A DNA stretch of 64,000 nucleotides from Firmicutes bacterium CAG:345. Its GTDB lineage: Bacteria; Bacillota_I; Bacilli_A; RFN20; CAG-288. The stretch is from positions 29,667-93,666 of the forward strand of contig FR893385.1 in NCBI GenBank assembly GCA_000433315.1, read 5' to 3'. This document shows, one piece after another, positions 42,173-55,982 of this stretch. The notes beneath the pieces were generated by a model. It did not search any database. It was not told the DNA's origin and was given only the letters and a program-made list of their open reading frames with translations. Made by a program: the position numbers and the translations under genes. Each line of letters begins with the position of its first letter. The stretch's first letter is position 1.

Positions 42173-43602
42173 TATTCATGTACCATGTTATCAATATGTT
42201 CTACATATTCATTAAGTCTTTTAACATATTGCTCTGCCTTTTCTTTTGTCCGCATTTCAACAAAAATTCGTAAAACAGGTTCTGTTCCAGAACGTCTTAA
42301 TAGTACCCATGAATCATCAGCAAAAATATATTTTATATTGCGATTAATTCTTTCAACTTTTAAAACTTCATCCGGAAAATCAATTGTTTCATTTTCTAAA
42401 TATGAGCAAACTTTTTTATCATCTTTGTAAGAAATACTATCTTCAATAATAACATGATGAAAATCAGCAAAATTTCTTACTTCTTCAATGACTTTAGATA
42501 AAGGTTTCTTCATTGCTATTAACATTTCAATAACTAACGCTAGAGCAAAAGTTGAATCTTTGCCATAAATATATCCACGCATAGTTAAACCGCCAGAACT
42601 TTCTCCACCGATTAATGCATCATATTTTTTTATTGCACTTGAAACATTTTTAAACCCAACATCAACTTCGTGACAAACAAAGCCACATTTTTGTGCAACT
42701 TTATCAAGAAGATTACTGGTAGCCAAATTTTTAACGATATCACCTGACATATGGCGATACTTAATAAAATAATAATATAAAGAAGCTAAAATTTCATTGC
42801 TATCTACATAATTTCCAAGTTCATCAAGCATTCCCAATCTATCAGCATCAGAATCAAGACCAGCAATACAATCATAATGATAATCATTCAGATATTTCCG
42901 ATCTTTTTCCATATTGTTCTTTGTTGGATTTGGCAACATATTTCCAAAAAAAGCATCATGATTATAATTGACAATTTTAATATTTTTAAAGCTCATTTTT
43001 TCAATAAGAGGAGATAATGAAGTAACACCTACACCATGTAAATCATCGATTAAAATATTAATATCGCTTCCTTGAATCTGTTGGTCCATAAAAGACTTTA
43101 TATTCTCTACATACTCATCAATAAATGATATATATTCAATGAATCCTTTAGATAATGCCTCATCAAAGTCGATTATTTCTACATTTTTTAATAAAGCAAT
43201 TTGCTGTTCTATTCGACTTGTTAAATTTATATCAGCATCCATGCCTTCTTTTTGAAAGACTTTAATACCATTGAAATAATAAGGGTTATGACTAGCAGTA
43301 ATCATAATTCCAAAATCATAACTTTCTTTTTTAGTTTTAAACATTACTGCTGGAGTTGGTGTCGGTTCTTTAGATATCAAAACCTTAATACCATTATAGG
43401 CCAAAACTTCGGCAATCCACTTAGCAGCATAATCGGACATAAATCTGTAATCATATCCAACAACTATAGGCTTTTCGCTTTTTTCAAACTTAACAATATT
43501 AGCTATAGCCTTACCAACTAATTGAATATTATCACGTGAAAAATCATCCCCGATTACACCGCGAAATCCACCTGTTCCAAATTCAATTTTTTTATCATTC
43601 AT
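42172..43602 (-). CDS. phosphohexomutase (phosphoglucomutase/phosphomannomutase family)
   Basis: GTGGFRG and TASHNPYYFNGIK active-site Ser motif. Confidence 0.85.
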   Translation of the reverse strand: MNDKKIEFGTGGFRGVIGDDFSRDNIQLVGKAIANIVKFEKSEKPIVVGYDYRFMSDYAAKWIAEVLAYNGIKVLISKEPTPTPAVMFKTKKESYDFGIMITASHNPYYFNGIKVFQKEGMDADINLTSRIEQQIALLKNVEIIDFDEALSKGFIEYISFIDEYVENIKSFMDQQIQGSDINILIDDLHGVGVTSLSPLIEKMSFKNIKIVNYNHDAFFGNMLPNPTKNNMEKDRKYLNDYHYDCIAGLDSDADRLGMLDELGNYVDSNEILASLYYYFIKYRHMSGDIVKNLATSNLLDKVAQKCGFVCHEVDVGFKNVSSAIKKYDALIGGESSGGLTMRGYIYGKDSTFALALVIEMLIAMKKPLSKVIEEVRNFADFHHVIIEDSISYKDDKKVCSYLENETIDFPDEVLKVERINRNIKYIFADDSWVLLRRSGTEPVLRIFVEMRTKEKAEQYVKRLNEYVEHIDNMVHE

Positions 43603-43620
43603 AGTATTACGCTTTCTATT

Positions 43621-44208
43621 TTAAAACTTAGTATATTTAAAGGAATAAATTGTCATCTTTGAATTTTCTTGTCTTTGTTCACCAGCCCAAGAAGGACACC
43701 ACGCTCCAATCCATACTTCCATGGCATGAGTTGGAACATTAGTTTCTATAACTGTTTGAAGAACATTATCTATATAAAATTCAACTTTTTTTCCGCAGTA
43801 CCAATCAAAACGATAGGTATGTTTTTCATTATCTTGAAGATTATAATTCAATTTTGAATTAATATGAGTAGAATCACTTTCTGAAGTATATGAAGAATAA
43901 ATAACATCATTAGAATTAAATGCTTCAATATCTATTTCATGGTTAACATTTCCATTATCAGCATAATAAAATGTCCAAAAAGCAGTTGCCACTCCACTTT
44001 TAGAAGTAGTGCTTGCTACAAATTCAAAACTGCCTTCTTCATATAACGCTTTGGAAATTAGGGCACCACCTACTCTATTTTTTCCATCTATATTAATTTC
44101 GGCATAACCTTCAGGAGTAAAAGAAACATTTTCTTCTTTTACTCCCCCATTTCCATCATTTCCCCATTTTCTTGTTACTGCGGTAAAACTTTTTTTAATG
44201 ATTGAGCC
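43621..44208 (-). pseudogene. GH16 catalytic domain separated from the upstream lipoprotein by a frameshift at a T7/A7 tract (44190..44196)
   Basis: In frame with GGALISKALYEEG...AFWTFYYADNGNVNHEIDIE (GH16 ExDxxE motif); no start or signal peptide; one extra A would fuse it to the 44175..45767 ORF. Confidence 0.6.
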
Positions 44209-45767
44209 TCATTTTCATTAATTCTATACCATCTAAAAGCAGAAGATGATTTATATATATTGTTTTCTTTTACCAAAACATTGATGGCATATACTCCAGG
44301 TTCTGTCGGAGCAGTTGTGCCTAAATTAGTTTCACCATCATCTTTGGTATAATAAACTTCATAATCAGCACCATCAGAGACTTTTACTGTAATTTCATAT
44401 GGAGTACCATAAGTAAATATTGTTCCATTTTCTATCGATATTTCAATAACGGCTTCTTGCAATTCACTTGGACTATCAATTACATACCAAACAAAGACGT
44501 TTTTTGCTTTAAAAGTTGCATTTTCTTTTACTGCAACATTGATAGCATATGTTCCTGGAGCTGTTGGTTTGTTTTGTCCAAGATTAGTTTCACCATCATC
44601 TTTGGTGTAATAAACTTCATAATCAGCGCCATTTGATACTGCAACTTCGATTTGATAATCTTCACCATAAGTAAAATGAGTTCCACTAGCTACAGAAAAA
44701 GATATTTCTGCATCTTGCTTTTCAGTTTTAGCAACAATTTCAAACCATCTCCAAGTTTTTTTATTATCAAGAGGAGCAACAAATTCATCATTTTCAATGA
44801 TTCTAACATTCACTGCATATAAACCAGGTTCTGTTGGAGCAGTTGCACCCAAATCGATTTCTCCATCATCTTTAGTATAATAAACTTCATAATCAGCACC
44901 ACTTGATACTGTGACTTCAATATTATATGGTTCACCTTGAGTAAATTTTGTTCCATTTTCTATAGAGAATGAAATTTCTGCTTCTTTTTTAACTGAAGGT
45001 GCTTTGATATAGTACCAAACAAATGCAGTTGTTGAACTATAATAAGCATTTTCAAGTGTAGTAACATTGATAGCATATAATCCTGGTTCCGTCGGAGCTT
45101 TAGAACCTAAATTAGTTTCTCCATCATCTTTAGTATAAAAGATTTCATAATCAACTACCGCATTAACTGAAACAATAATAGTTTTTAAATCATTTGTTAA
45201 TAAAGTTGTTCCGTTTGTAAATGTCGTTCCATCATCAAGAGTAAATGTAATAGTTGGCTTTTCTTTTTCTATTGTACTTTTAATATTTATAGTATAGTAC
45301 GCTTGATATTTTTCTTCATATTTAATAATAACATCAGTCTGTCCTTCTTTATTCATGCTAGGAGCTATAACCATATCCAATGTTACTGGAACTTCTTTTT
45401 GGCTACCATCAGAATAATTGACTAAAATTGTTAAACCAGTTATATCAAGTTCTTCGCCAATATTATATTCTGTTTTATCTGGGTAATTTCCAATTTCAAT
45501 AGAAGTAATACTGATAACATCAGTGCCCGATGATGATGTTGTTGAGGAAGAAGAGGTTGCTGAACTAGTACTAGAAGATGAACTAGGTTTACTAGATGAA
45601 GAACTACTTGAATTAGAAGAAATAGATGAAGAAGATGAAATTACGGAAGAAGAGGTTGGTTGAATCGTAGAAGTAGAAGAAGAAGATGATGATGATGATG
45701 ATGTAGGTGAACAAGATGCTAAAAGTGTGGCGACTGTTGCAAGTAAGATAACATTAAGCTTTTTCAT
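44175..45767 (-). CDS. surface lipoprotein with Ser-rich linker and four tandem ~95-aa repeat domains (likely N-terminal part of a GH16 enzyme)
   Basis: Lipobox LLASC; poly-Ser linker; four repeats ADYEVYYTKDDGETNLG..APTEPG.YAINV. Confidence 0.7.
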   Translation of the reverse strand: MKKLNVILLATVATLLASCSPTSSSSSSSSSTSTIQPTSSSVISSSSSISSNSSSSSSSKPSSSSSTSSATSSSSTTSSSGTDVISITSIEIGNYPDKTEYNIGEELDITGLTILVNYSDGSQKEVPVTLDMVIAPSMNKEGQTDVIIKYEEKYQAYYTINIKSTIEKEKPTITFTLDDGTTFTNGTTLLTNDLKTIIVSVNAVVDYEIFYTKDDGETNLGSKAPTEPGLYAINVTTLENAYYSSTTAFVWYYIKAPSVKKEAEISFSIENGTKFTQGEPYNIEVTVSSGADYEVYYTKDDGEIDLGATAPTEPGLYAVNVRIIENDEFVAPLDNKKTWRWFEIVAKTEKQDAEISFSVASGTHFTYGEDYQIEVAVSNGADYEVYYTKDDGETNLGQNKPTAPGTYAINVAVKENATFKAKNVFVWYVIDSPSELQEAVIEISIENGTIFTYGTPYEITVKVSDGADYEVYYTKDDGETNLGTTAPTEPGVYAINVLVKENNIYKSSSAFRWYRINENEAQSLKKVLPQ

Positions 45768-45781
45768 TTTACTTCCTTTCC

Positions 45782-46915
45782 TTAATATTTAAGCAAACTG
45801 TTTTCAGTATCAATATCGAACAAACATAAATTTTCAGTATCAAAACTAACTTTAATTTGATCTCCGAAATGGTGTTCAGTTCTACCTGGTTTTTTCATTA
45901 CAAATTCTGTTTCTTTCTTTGAAGAAATAGAATCAAAGTCGTTTTCAAAATTTAAAAATAATAAACATTCAGATCCAAGAGATTCAATGACATTTAGATA
46001 AACTGGTATTCCATCTTGATCTTCATAAACATTTTCACTTCTAATTCCTAAAGTTGCTTCAAATAAATCCTTATCTTTATATTCATCGATTAAATCAAGA
46101 TTACCAAGTGATATTTTATTTCCATTAATTATTTCTGCAAAATATTCACCATCTTCTTTAGTAATTTTTACTTTAAAGAAATTCATCTGCGGAGTTCCAA
46201 TAAAACTGGCAACAAATTTATTAGCTGGATGATCATATAAATTTGTTGGAGTATCAAATTGTTGAATTTCTCCATTTTTTAAAACAACGATTCGCGTTCC
46301 CATAGTCATAGCTTCTACTTGATCATGGGTAACATAGATAAATGTCGTTTTTAATTTTTCATATAACCGAATAATTTCAGATCTCATTTCAGTTCTAAGC
46401 TTTGCATCCAAATTCGATAAAGGTTCATCAAACAAGAATATATCAGCATCTTTTACAATTGCTCTTCCTAGTGCTACACGTTGTCTTTGTCCACCTGAAA
46501 GAGCACCTGGTTTTCTTTTTAAATATTCTTCAAGTCCTAAAACTTTACTAACTTCCTCTACTTTTTTCTTTATTTCCTCTTTTGGAACATGACGTAATTT
46601 CAGTCCAAAAGCGATATTATCGTAAACATCTAAAAAAGGATATAACGCATAATTTTGGAAAACCATAGCAATATTTCGATCTTTTGGTTCAACATCATTC
46701 ATATAATTACCATTGATATATAATTCACCGCTGGTAATTTCTTCAAGTCCTGCTATCATTCTTAAAACTGTTGATTTTCCGCAACCTGATGGTCCAACAA
46801 AAACAATAAATTCGCCATCTTTTATTTCCATCGAAAAATCTTTTACAACTGTAACATCATTTTTATAAGTTTTATAAATATTTTTTAATACTAAACCTGC
46901 CATAAACTGCCTCAA
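45782..46915 (-). CDS. msmK: sugar ABC transporter ATP-binding protein (MsmK/MalK-like)
   Basis: Walker A GPSGCGKST, signature LSGGQRQR, C-terminal TOBE domain. Confidence 0.88.
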   Translation of the reverse strand: MRQFMAGLVLKNIYKTYKNDVTVVKDFSMEIKDGEFIVFVGPSGCGKSTVLRMIAGLEEITSGELYINGNYMNDVEPKDRNIAMVFQNYALYPFLDVYDNIAFGLKLRHVPKEEIKKKVEEVSKVLGLEEYLKRKPGALSGGQRQRVALGRAIVKDADIFLFDEPLSNLDAKLRTEMRSEIIRLYEKLKTTFIYVTHDQVEAMTMGTRIVVLKNGEIQQFDTPTNLYDHPANKFVASFIGTPQMNFFKVKITKEDGEYFAEIINGNKISLGNLDLIDEYKDKDLFEATLGIRSENVYEDQDGIPVYLNVIESLGSECLLFLNFENDFDSISSKKETEFVMKKPGRTEHHFGDQIKVSFDTENLCLFDIDTENSLLKY

Positions 46916-52971: not shown

Positions 52972-54360
52972 TTATTTTTGATACAAGGAAACATTATCTA
53001 TATAAATAGTATTTCCTTTACTGCTTTCAACATTGATTCTAATTCTTTGAGTATTTTTGGGGGCAATTCCATCTATCATATATAAATTCAAATTATCGGA
53101 ATCAACTTCAACTTCTTTAAATTCTAGAATTTCTGTATCAGTAGCTCCGTAATATCTTAAAACTACCTTTCCCTTTCCTTTTCCATAAAAAGAAAGTGTA
53201 TGTTCAAAATTTTCATAGACTGAATCAATTATTTGATAAGCTAATCCTTCATCTTTGACAAATAAACATTTAGATTCATCTTTTCCTTCATATTCAATTA
53301 CATTGCAAACCTCTTCAATTTCTTTATCTTCTGTTATTCTTTTAGTTGCATTCCAACCGCCGATTCTCGAATTTTTCAACAAGACGTTATCAAAATCACC
53401 ATTAGAAATTTTATTATTAACCGGAGAAGAAATTGGCTCGCTTGGATATTCATAATCTTCTGCATATCCATTGACAGCAGGATTAAATTTTGTAAAAGGC
53501 TGATCTAAAAAAGGAATATATTTCACATAATCAACATACATATAATCTGTTTCAAAATTTGCTGTTCCAACAAATGCCGAAGTTACTGGAAACCAACATC
53601 CAACCCAAAGTCGAGATTGCATCAGAGGAACAAAAACATTAGAGATAGCTGATATTTTTCCATCTACATAATAAATAACTTTTTCAGGATTAGTGTACCA
53701 ATCAAATCCAAAGGTATGCCATTCTCCATCATTATAATAAGAAGGGCTTCCATTAATTGTCTCAGAATTTACATCTTGAGAATTTGAAAACTGCTCGGTT
53801 ATATAATTTGTATTTAAAACATTAGTAAATGATATCGTATTACTTCTTGTTCCACCAGGAAGTTCAATATCTATTTCATGATTCAATGCATTTTCAGTGT
53901 CATACGCGAATGTCCAAAAAGCAGAGCAAGCACCTTGTCGAGGCAAAACTTTCATTTTAATTTCATATCTTCCTGATTGAACAAGAAATTTTGAAATTAG
54001 AGCTCCACCAGTATAGCGACCATCTTTAATATCACCAACTCCTCTTATATCATTATCGTCATAATAAGCACCATTAGCTTGAATAACTAAAGAACCATCA
54101 TCGGTATATTTTATATTTTCTGGAATTACTCCACCATTAGAGCCACCCCATGCTTGTTTTCCAATATACCAATTTTCTTTTGATACTCCAGTAGAAAAAT
54201 CATCAAAAAAAGCATTATCATAATCCAATTTAACATTTTCTAACAAAGAAATATCATCCCCGATTTTCATTTCCGTAGAATTTGATGTATTATTAGAACA
54301 AGAGGTCAAACAAAGTATAATAGATAAGAAAGAAATTCCTCTAATTATTTTCAAACTCAT
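52972..54360 (-). CDS. GH16 beta-glucanase lipoprotein with C-terminal carbohydrate-binding domain
   Basis: Lipobox LTSC; NHEIDIELPGG catalytic ExDxxE motif; extra ~180-aa C-terminal beta-sandwich. Confidence 0.8.
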   Translation of the reverse strand: MSLKIIRGISFLSIILCLTSCSNNTSNSTEMKIGDDISLLENVKLDYDNAFFDDFSTGVSKENWYIGKQAWGGSNGGVIPENIKYTDDGSLVIQANGAYYDDNDIRGVGDIKDGRYTGGALISKFLVQSGRYEIKMKVLPRQGACSAFWTFAYDTENALNHEIDIELPGGTRSNTISFTNVLNTNYITEQFSNSQDVNSETINGSPSYYNDGEWHTFGFDWYTNPEKVIYYVDGKISAISNVFVPLMQSRLWVGCWFPVTSAFVGTANFETDYMYVDYVKYIPFLDQPFTKFNPAVNGYAEDYEYPSEPISSPVNNKISNGDFDNVLLKNSRIGGWNATKRITEDKEIEEVCNVIEYEGKDESKCLFVKDEGLAYQIIDSVYENFEHTLSFYGKGKGKVVLRYYGATDTEILEFKEVEVDSDNLNLYMIDGIAPKNTQRIRINVESSKGNTIYIDNVSLYQK

Positions 54361-54554: not shown

Positions 54555-55982
54555 ATGAAAAAGAAATATGTAGCATGTTTTTTAGCAACATGCCTAGTAT
54601 CCACTGTCCTTGCAAGTTGCAACAATAATACTACAAACGAAAAAGAATTAAAAATTGTTTATTATTCAGCAGGTTATGGTGAAAAATGGATAAACGATTT
54701 AGTTTCTATATTTGAAAAGAACCATGAAGGTGTTAAAGTTAATTTAGAAGCGAGTTACAATGCTGAAAGCATTATCAGACAAAATTTAAATTCATCAAGA
54801 AATAGCGATGACTTATACATTTCCACTGGTTCAACCTGGAAATCATATGCTGCAACAGGTAAGTTTGCAGATTTAACTGATTTTCTAAATGAAACAGTCG
54901 ATTCCACTTCCAATATTACCGTAAAAGATAAAATCAACGACGAATATAAAGATTCTATTTATTATAAAAGAAGTGATGGCTCTACAAAATCTTATCGATT
55001 ACCTTTTACTTCCGGTGTAGGCGGAATATTCTATAATAAAAAGATGTTTGAAAGCAATGGTTGGAAAATTCCAGAAACCTATAAAGAACTTATGAATCTT
55101 TGCGAAACTATCGTTAAAAATCCCGTTGCTGTTCCAGGTGATCCTGATGGTACAACTATGGTTAAACCTTTTGTTTATACTGGATCAAATACTGATTACT
55201 TTGATTACACAGTTTTTGACTGGTGGAGTCAAATTGTTGGCAAAGATGCTATTCAAAACTTTTTAAAATATGATAATCCTGAAAACTTCGATGTCAGCAA
55301 AAATGAAACATATAATGGCTTAAAAACAGCAACTCAAAGATGGAATGATCTATTTGCTCCTGAAAAAGGGTATTATGTTTTAGATAGAAATGCAACAAGT
55401 GCAGCCGATGCTCAAAGAGATTTTATCAATGGCTATGCTGCTATGATGTTCAATGGTGATTGGCTATATAATGAAGCCTTGAATTATACAAATAGTGGAA
55501 CATTTGATTCAACATTTGAATTAGGCATTATGAAAACTCCTGTTCTTGAAGAAGCTAAGGAAGAATATAAAGATACTTCTTATATTATCGGTGAAGATCA
55601 ATATATTGCTATTCCTGCTTCTAGTTCTAAAAAGGAATTAGCGCAAGAATTTATCAAACTTATGATAAGTGATCAAGGATGTGAAATTTTTGCTAATGAG
55701 GGTCATGGTATCTTAGCCTATAAATCCGATTTTTCAAAAATGAATATTACCGATAGTTTTATGAATGAATATTTAAACCTTAGAGAAAAATATACATATA
55801 AATTCACTAATTTCTCAAATGATAGAAAATATTTAACTAATTATATCGATATTTGGGGGACTTCTGCCACCCGTCCATTCTTATCAATATTAAATGGTAC
55901 TTTAAATATTGATAAAGCTTTTAATAATATCCGCGATACTGTCAATGCATCATGGAATGATTGGACTTCACAAAGCAATTAA
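54555..55982 (+). CDS. ABC transporter extracellular solute-binding lipoprotein (family 1, sugar)
   Basis: Lipobox LASC; 475 aa SBP_bac_1-like. Confidence 0.8.
   Translation: MKKKYVACFLATCLVSTVLASCNNNTTNEKELKIVYYSAGYGEKWINDLVSIFEKNHEGVKVNLEASYNAESIIRQNLNSSRNSDDLYISTGSTWKSYAATGKFADLTDFLNETVDSTSNITVKDKINDEYKDSIYYKRSDGSTKSYRLPFTSGVGGIFYNKKMFESNGWKIPETYKELMNLCETIVKNPVAVPGDPDGTTMVKPFVYTGSNTDYFDYTVFDWWSQIVGKDAIQNFLKYDNPENFDVSKNETYNGLKTATQRWNDLFAPEKGYYVLDRNATSAADAQRDFINGYAAMMFNGDWLYNEALNYTNSGTFDSTFELGIMKTPVLEEAKEEYKDTSYIIGEDQYIAIPASSSKKELAQEFIKLMISDQGCEIFANEGHGILAYKSDFSKMNITDSFMNEYLNLREKYTYKFTNFSNDRKYLTNYIDIWGTSATRPFLSILNGTLNIDKAFNNIRDTVNASWNDWTSQSN

Follow-up and report, generated by a model that had tools for sequence, protein, structure and literature searches.

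A conserved slippery heptamer ahead of a GH16 domain: a candidate programmed −1 frameshift in a surface lipoprotein gene of human-gut bacteria

We analyzed a stretch of 64,000 nucleotides (nt) from Firmicutes bacterium CAG:345 (assembly GCA_000433315.1, contig FR893385.1, positions 29,667 to 93,666), hereafter the window. It contains a surface lipoprotein gene that stops in one reading frame just where a glycoside hydrolase family 16 (GH16) domain opens in another, and our comparisons suggest that the two parts are joined by recoding, probably by a programmed −1 ribosomal frameshift at a run of seven A (A7). The upstream open reading frame (ORF), of 530 amino acids (aa), begins with a lipoprotein signal peptide, continues through a Ser-rich linker, a Big_3 immunoglobulin-like domain and four repeats, and ends ...NENEAQSLKKVLPQ before its stop codon (Table 1). 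A lipobox with its Cys is present in orthologues too (VYGC, ITGC, VSAC, LVGC and LVSC). The length of this part varies among strains: one variant (P0001, L006 563-2413) has 616 aa, with one ~88-aa repeat more than the window ORF, and other strains have 524-526 aa through a changed length of the Ser linker. The repeat region is the part of the locus with most divergence, and the junction and GH16 part differ by just 1-3 nt in 570.

The junction has the layout of a −1 frameshift site. The A7 run forms a heptamer of the type X_XXY_YYZ in phase with the upstream frame, such that both tRNA-Lys would be able to re-pair one base back; the next codon, starting at 44190, is AGT (Ser). A shift from the 0 to the −1 frame gives an open product only within the 31 nt between a −1-frame TGA (44211..44209) and the 0-frame TAA, and A_AAA_AAA is the only slippery motif in this interval. 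Upstream of A7 the −1 frame is open for just six codons (GSIIKK) before that TGA closes it. Joining the frames at the A7 tract gives a protein of 715 aa, with Lys-Lys-Ser as the predicted junction residues for a slip at the heptamer and AQSLKKSFTAVTRKWGNDGNGGVKE as the Glu-C junction peptide of the predicted fusion. An earlier, sequence-only reading of this DNA had described the lipoprotein ORF running out across A7, a complete GH16 domain without a start in another frame, and the order signal peptide, Ser linker, four repeats and GH16. We confirmed all three; the joined protein is also colinear with uninterrupted homologues. That reading had also proposed that a single extra A would fuse the parts into ~720 aa, which is right in substance, the computed length being 715 aa. 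It placed the shift at A7 correctly and called it +1; for the ribosome, one A more in the DNA is equivalent to a shift of −1.

With 86 A7/T7 runs in a window of 29% GC, an A7 run alone is unremarkable. What stands out is that a recognisable enzyme follows it with ~190 open codons. Since ~8% of random codons are stops at ~30% GC, we estimate the chance of 195 open codons at ~1e-7; the −1 frame is therefore real coding sequence. Translated from 44190 in the −1 frame, it reads SFTAVTRKWGNDGNGGV...NHEIDIE...KYTKF and ends at a TAA. Initiation at the first canonical start of this frame, a GTG at 43992, would drop the N-terminal third of GH16, and gene callers annotate merely a 123-aa GH16 fragment.

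The downstream part matched Pfam Glyco_hydro_16 (PF00722) over residues 545-700 of the 715-aa protein (E=1e-11, 45.1 bits, against a cut-off of 22 bits), and its HEIDIE sequence contains the E-x-D-x-E motif of lichenase-type GH16. Its sequence matches in the Protein Data Bank were Bacillus 1,3-1,4-beta-glucanases (1MAC, 1BYH and 1GBG). An AlphaFold (AF2) model of the last repeat and GH16 had a mean predicted local distance difference test score (pLDDT) of 80.5, exceeding 90 over most of GH16. Comparison of the model with 1MAC using Foldseek gave E=4.5e-13 and a template modelling (TM) score of 0.77 normalised to the target; the alignment covered 202 of 212 residues, so that the Bacillus lichenase was matched over its whole length. 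As modelled, the domain is a complete GH16 beta-jelly-roll fold, and the motif type and the operon predict an endo-beta-glucanase activity and its substrate. In the model, ...NENEAQSLKK forms a short helical linker, and the jelly roll begins with a strand at F-T-A. Because that strand starts immediately past the slip, the recoding site would lie exactly at the domain boundary.

Seven species are interrupted in the same way and at corresponding codons: the window species, L007, L010 (Clostridium sp. CAG:288), L012, L011, L013 and L174. They were collected by a GH16-alignment search of species-representative genomes and by later look-ups. The GH16 parts of the six others are 62-71% identical to that of the window. 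Four species (the window species, L007, L010 and L012) have A_AAA_AAA. In the remaining three (L011, L013 and L174) the run is shortened to six A (A6) and the heptamer is A_AAA_AAT; there the Ser codon AGT has become TCA or TCC, yet the heptamer still re-pairs in the −1 frame. A 0-frame stop follows 2-5 codons past the heptamer in all seven. A homologue of 500 aa and just 43% identity ends in the same 0-frame tail (...SSALKKVLPR and a stop), and its contig (L007) reads TTA AAA AAA GTT TTA CCG CGA TAA, after which GH16 follows in the −1 frame. The DNA upstream is unalignable between species and conservation sets in abruptly at TTAAAAAA. Read across the frames, [SA]LKK (0 frame) followed by SFTA[VI]T..WG (−1 frame) is colinear and gapless with NLK[NDT][DK]F.A.T..WG of in-frame homologues, and it is colinear with the uninterrupted ORF of L018 as well.

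We compared the GH16 parts of six of these species (the window species and five others; L174 was fetched later and left out). Pairwise synonymous divergence (dS) was about 1-3, that is, saturated, the ratio of nonsynonymous to synonymous divergence (dN/dS) was 0.08-0.32, and there were no internal stops. Conservation of the site across the seven species goes together with purifying selection on both ORFs, as expected of a programmed −1 site (the dS and dN/dS values being those of six of the species), and no start codon before GH16 is conserved.

Within species, the tract did not vary. All 12 other contigs of the window species, which come from different samples and are 97.3-98.6% identical over the locus, have A7 and an identical junction (13 of 13 with the window), as do three of three assemblies of a second species, the Clostridium sp. 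CAG:288 type; the related contigs come from human-gut metagenomes. The GH16 parts of the 12 contigs represent nine haplotypes, none of them that of the window and none with a stop or an indel. Their eight variable sites, four of them in synonymous codons, are too sparse for a test of selection. A query with the fused sequence against 5.8 billion protein clusters returned 26 matches and no fused lipoprotein-GH16 protein among them, while the short form was found repeatedly, at 524-530 aa and as one 616-aa variant, in clusters of up to 505 members. An in-frame A8 allele was thus absent from the 12 same-species assemblies, the three CAG:288-type assemblies and the protein clusters. Since a single mutation from A7 to A8, of a kind that arises at a high rate, would restore a plain fusion, the complete absence of A8 argues that the interrupted state is itself selected, beyond mere tolerance. 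We regard this as the strongest argument.

Twelve orthologous lipoprotein-GH16 genes, from 12 other species, have an in-frame TGA instead of a frameshift. The TGA lies at the N-terminal edge of GH16 in nine (L014, L097, L169, L170, L171, L172, L173, L175 and L176); in eight of these nine it is the fourth codon before a conserved Phe, abutting the upstream lipoprotein ORF. In the other three (L015-L017) it lies ~100 aa farther upstream, ahead of the last repeat. The next base is A in 11 of the 12 and C in one. Among the nine boundary-TGA species a start codon follows the TGA in L097 only. The final stop after GH16 was TAA at each of nine loci checked. For L173, whose contig is covered 2x and has a further frame break upstream, the TGA alone was counted. 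A protein entry with Trp at the TGA position (P0034) proved to be a gene-calling artefact, its DNA (L173) having TGA; the contig is short, code 4 had evidently been used in the gene call, and entries of this kind can mask in-frame stops in similarity searches. We rejected code 4 or a general reassignment of TGA, a less-used terminator of these genomes that ends four of 40 long window ORFs and is a stop in relatives. GH16 uses TGG for every conserved Trp, and the genes next to it translate without internal stops under table 11. The window has only five tRNAs, so the lack of one with a UCA anticodon among them says little.

Only one species (L018) has a continuous ORF, in which repeats link a lipoprotein signal peptide to GH16; it contains a masked stretch of N, across which continuity with the far-upstream part is presumed. 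Among the 20 species-level lineages sampled, the gene was thus interrupted in 19 and continuous in one; the records carry the labels Erysipelotrichaceae/Erysipelotrichales, Coprobacillus and Clostridium sp. CAG:288. In a neighbour-joining GH16 tree of 16 of these species each interruption type was monophyletic. Thus there would have been about three independent origins, each retained through deep divergence. The twelve TGA orthologues are candidates for programmed UGA readthrough, and the family pattern suggests a common solution, translational bypass ahead of the GH16 module, and selection for a leaky link from the anchor/repeat module to the enzyme. At its most general, the proposal would be that a low-GC gut group keeps its lipoprotein-GH16 gene leaky just before or ~100 aa before the catalytic domain, by a heptamer in seven species and by UGA-A/C in 12, with one fusion, in ~3 selection-preserved origins and with a fixed ratio of products like that of gag-pol; we would lay even odds on it.

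Our preferred interpretation, to which we give a probability of roughly 60%, is that a conserved programmed −1 ribosomal frameshift yields two surface lipoproteins, a short, non-catalytic one and a long one with GH16. The majority of ribosomes would stay in the 0 frame and end at the TAA, yielding the 530-aa repeat lipoprotein without a catalytic domain. A minority, with tRNA-Lys in the P and A sites, would slip one base back on A_AAA_AAA and go on in the −1 frame to a 715-aa lipoprotein whose C terminus is a GH16 domain of the endo-beta-1,3-1,4-glucanase type. The shared N terminus would export and lipid-anchor this domain, and at the surface the catalytic form would stand in a fixed, low ratio to the non-catalytic one, within the setting of a beta-glucan operon. 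Barring an unrecognised stimulator, the long form would probably be a small minority. The −1 ribosomal shift is favoured because the in-phase heptamer survived shortening of the run, because GH16 has no start, because a Shine-Dalgarno-like GAGG lies upstream and because such heptamers have published activity: in E. coli, frameshifting reached about 10% with an A_AAA_AAA cassette (PMC3711429) and about 5% with the A_AAA_AAT of Sulfolobus fucA1 (PMC8211752). We consider recoding of either kind, ribosomal or transcriptional, highly probable; the ribosomal rather than RNA polymerase origin of the shift, its efficiency and the purpose of the two isoforms are what we infer beyond that.

The pairing of the GAGG is the second strongest among 26 in-phase A7 heptamers in window ORFs. 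The SD-like element (GAGG or GGAG) is found 9-11 nt upstream of the heptamer, and the pairing energy is −2.5 kcal/mol or lower in all six frameshift-clade species tested. The GAGG may be a frameshift stimulator of the dnaX type or, equally, a ribosome-binding site for an ATT at 44199..44197. A perfect hairpin within the GH16 ORF (Table 1) recurs at a similar position in the closest relative, L010, and is absent from the other species; being too distant and conserved no further than that relative, it was rejected as a classical −1 stimulator.

Several observations weigh against a programmed ribosomal shift. The 715-aa product is a prediction from sequence. Frameshift mutations also favour A-runs, so location alone cannot separate a programmed site from a mutational one, and A7 could also support slippage of RNA polymerase. 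All seven frameshift species form one clade in the neighbour-joining GH16 tree (L174 placed by its 83% identity to L011), so conservation of the site and its phase is partly due to descent from a single event. Synonymous-site conservation beside the heptamer was, with 6-7 sequences, indistinguishable from AT-biased codon use. There was no conserved downstream hairpin or pseudoknot: RNAalifold on six species found five weak pairs (−1.5 kcal/mol) with none covarying, single-sequence folds had z-scores mostly near 0, no better than shuffles, and Rfam at a permissive threshold found no match in 43500-46000. Finally, in window ORFs of at least 150 aa, which contain 54 sense-strand A7 runs in 52 kb, the in-phase A_AAA_AAA is the commonest phase (27 of 54). 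Depletion of this heptamer in window genes, which would be a sign of slipperiness, was not seen, the opposite of what is reported for E. coli. A_AAA_AAA alone is thus not highly slippery here, and its efficiency may be a few per cent or less; the count implies that the organism tolerates the heptamer or suppresses slippage on it.

Transcriptional slippage, although unlikely in our judgement, is the rival explanation that fares best. RNA polymerase copying T7 would add an extra A, and normal decoding of the resulting A8 mRNA would give the same 715-aa fusion as frameshifting, in agreement with all the conservation data. Homopolymeric A-runs are known slippage sites, partly for which reason A7/U7 is depleted in all three frames of E. 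coli genes (PMC4066793), and dnaX relies on slippage in some species and on frameshifting in others (PMC3711429). Efficient natural cases, however, have at least nine A, and a reporter series gave 63%, 40% and 10% for 11, nine and seven A (PMC3711429). Sites of this kind usually comprise at least nine A or T and are kept or lengthened in relatives; here there are seven, and six in three relatives, lengths compatible with low-level slippage. In those three of seven species, A6 followed by T should cut slippage strongly, yet X_XXY_YYZ is retained. Moreover, A7 is so common in the genes of the window (54 on the sense strand) that slippage at A7 must be low.

A second alternative, which we consider improbable, is that the locus consists of two genes, with GH16 translated as a small cytoplasmic glucanase by reinitiation or from the non-canonical ATT, 7 nt after the GAGG. 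The GAGG-N7-ATT spacing resembles that of initiation. Five of the seven frameshift species have an ATT immediately ahead of the Lys codons in the −1 frame, with some purine-rich sequence upstream, and an ATG stands right behind the TGA in three TGA-type relatives. But L011 has TTT and L174 CTT at the position of the ATT, with no start of any kind near the N terminus of GH16, and nine of the 12 TGA-type relatives have no start after the stop. In the clade with the upstream TGA the downstream part opens with a repeat domain of extracellular type, and one relative is a continuous fusion. GH16 endoglucanases act on extracellular polysaccharide, and the GH16 part has no signal peptide of its own.

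Phase variation at the DNA level, one proposal of the sequence-only reading, is very improbable. Slipped-strand mispairing would switch subpopulations between A7 (OFF, short form) and A8 (ON, fused form). The setting, a homopolymer in a surface lipoprotein gene of an ATP-binding cassette (ABC) transporter operon, resembles that of Mycoplasma fermentans P78, and rare A8 mutants are bound to arise in any population. Against this stand the constancy of A7 in 13 of 13 assemblies of the species and three of three of the CAG:288 type, which leaves no variation in tract length at the level of assemblies, and the lack of a fused protein among the 26 cluster matches, even though the clusters of the short form run to hundreds of members. 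Seven species, three of which have only A6, retain the OFF frame at saturated dS, and the 12 orthologues with TGA are unable to switch by slippage. Least credible of all is a fixed pseudogene or a sequencing or assembly error, with GH16 an unexpressed remnant: indels do favour A-runs and callers annotate just a fragment, but independent assemblies agree on the junction, the GH16 frame is open with intact catalytic residues and a dN/dS of 0.08-0.32 over dS >1 in the species sharing the interruption, and we estimate at ~1e-7 per lineage the probability that 190 codons would stay open by chance at 30% GC. Phase variation, sequencing error and pseudogene, all raised by the sequence-only reading, therefore find no support in the alleles recovered, in the 12 A7 assemblies with their nine GH16 haplotypes or in the selection on GH16. 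Nor do relatives have two separate genes with a proper start for GH16, as no start is conserved.

Table 1. Features of the lipoprotein-GH16 locus and its operon (window positions; residue numbers where stated).
Feature	Position	Strand	Remarks
0-frame ORF, 530 aa + TAA stop	45767..44175	minus	translation; homologues of 524-530 aa stop likewise
Lipoprotein signal peptide	lipobox LLASC, Cys19	minus	direct reading of sequence: MKKLNVILLATVATLLAS-C
Ser-rich linker	about aa 20-80 of 530-aa ORF		direct reading of sequence
Big_3 Ig-like domain	aa 96-154 of 530-aa ORF		Pfam match
Four ~88-aa repeats	about aa 176-520 of 530-aa ORF		direct reading of sequence
Shine-Dalgarno-like GAGG	44207..44210	minus	10 nt 5′ of heptamer; −5.6 kcal/mol pairing to 16S 3′ end
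Shift window, 31 nt	44178..44208	minus	a 0 to −1 shift must fall here for the product to be open
A7 run / slippery heptamer A_AAA_AAA	44196..44190	minus	in phase with 0 frame, TT-A AAA AAA = Leu-Lys-Lys
0-frame stop TAA	44177..44175	minus	five codons past heptamer; terminates short product
GH16 ORF, 189 aa + TAA, −1 frame	44190..43621	minus	lichenase-type beta-jelly-roll (predicted), without own start codon or signal peptide
Perfect 12-14 bp hairpin (GGAGTAAAAGAAG...CTTCTTTTACTCC)	44113..44146	minus	within GH16 ORF, 43 nt 3′ of heptamer, z = −2.5
Catalytic motif E-I-D-I-E (E85, D87, E89 of GH16 part)	43924..43938	minus	invariant in 14 aligned family members
Second GH16 lipoprotein, 462 aa, uninterrupted	52972-54360	minus	weak CBM_4_9 match, same EIDIE-type motif
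Solute-binding protein	54555-55982	opposite to rest of operon	

The gene lies in a predicted beta-glucan utilisation operon, which is on one strand throughout with the exception of the solute-binding protein. Further members are two permeases, a 1002-aa Glug-motif protein, a ROK protein and a MalK-type ATPase, and the lipoprotein-GH16 gene is followed in the operon listing by genes for phosphoglucomutase and a GH94-family protein. Since the second GH16 lipoprotein is uninterrupted, the cell would, if the first is recoded, have one conventionally expressed and one recoded surface GH16. Two neighbouring genes were each split in a single assembly of the same species, the MalK-type ATPase into pieces of 153 and 217 aa (L004 2864-3986) and the Glug-motif protein into pieces of 642 and 364 aa (L005 1-1688); these are either strain-level disruptions or assembly errors.

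If the frameshift interpretation is correct, the locus would be a new and easily testable case of recoding in abundant human-gut bacteria, and a frameshift and a UGA stop would be interchangeable at one domain boundary among orthologues, which is rare for cellular bacterial genes. It would also imply a general reason to limit enzyme-bearing surface anchors, perhaps the stoichiometry of a glycan-capture complex or control over the release of a public good. In the output of annotation pipelines such a locus is either a pseudogene or a lipoprotein accompanied by a truncated GH16 fragment. Because loci are split or truncated in this way, inventories of carbohydrate-active enzymes (CAZymes) in the gut would under-count or mis-localise this glucanase.

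To our knowledge, conserved recoding in chromosomal, non-mobile bacterial genes is confined to a handful of cases, including dnaX, prfB and copA. Of the recoding cases described in the literature searched, none is a bacterial glycoside hydrolase or lipoprotein, an absence that is no proof of novelty. The parts of a 2016 frameshifting review that were available mention no glycosidase-type terms, glucanase, fucosidase or lipoprotein, and the main text of the GeneTack survey lists no such glycoside hydrolase or lipoprotein case.

A close formal parallel is orfA/orfAB of IS3-family insertion sequences (such as IS911, A_AAA_AAG), where two tRNA-Lys slip by −1 to give a short 0-frame product and a trans-frame fusion. 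As here, the 0-frame stop comes soon after the site, the downstream ORF has no start and catalysis resides in the second domain. Unlike in those elements, the gene here is a chromosomal sugar-utilisation lipoprotein gene and not mobile, and no downstream stem-loop or pseudoknot was found. E. coli dnaX (A_AAA_AAG with an upstream Shine-Dalgarno sequence and a downstream hairpin) shares with this locus a cellular gene, an A-rich heptamer and an SD-like element ~10 nt upstream. As with its products tau and gamma, two isoforms in a set ratio are predicted here, and orthologues differ in recoding mechanism. The shifted dnaX product is shorter, however, whereas the shifted product here would gain a whole catalytic domain, and no conserved hairpin was detected.

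The fucA1 gene of Saccharolobus (Sulfolobus) solfataricus is likewise a split glycoside hydrolase with a −1 shift, on A-AAA-AAT, the heptamer of three relatives of the window (PMC8211752). It is expressed at a low level, and a difference of one A sets it apart from the full-length gene of close relatives; the same archaeal review states that programmed frameshifting regulates no alpha-L-fucosidase gene in bacteria or eukaryotes (PMC8211752). fucA1 is archaeal, cytoplasmic and of family GH29, and it is split inside the catalytic protein in one or two strains, whereas the interruption here falls at a domain boundary in seven species. Mycoplasma fermentans P78, as summarised in a secondary source, is a lipoprotein phase-variable through poly(A) (Theiss and Wise 1997, cited in PMC3711429). 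On that account the two share their setting: each is a surface lipoprotein gene of a low-GC bacterium, belongs to an operon for an ABC transporter and has its reading frame governed by a short poly(A). The P78 tract, so described, varies among clones and turns the whole protein ON or OFF, whereas the length here is invariant and only the C-terminal domain depends on it.

In retroviral gag-pol, a minority of ribosomes produces the enzyme extension, by −1 frameshifting in human immunodeficiency virus (HIV) and by stop-codon readthrough at the same boundary in murine leukaemia virus (MLV). The likeness to gag-pol would be one of logic only: an excess of the structural N-terminal product and a minority extension carrying the enzyme, reached by a frameshift or by a leaky stop. 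Unlike gag-pol, the genes described here are bacterial and chromosomal, their leaky stop would be UGA and their ratio of products is a prediction.

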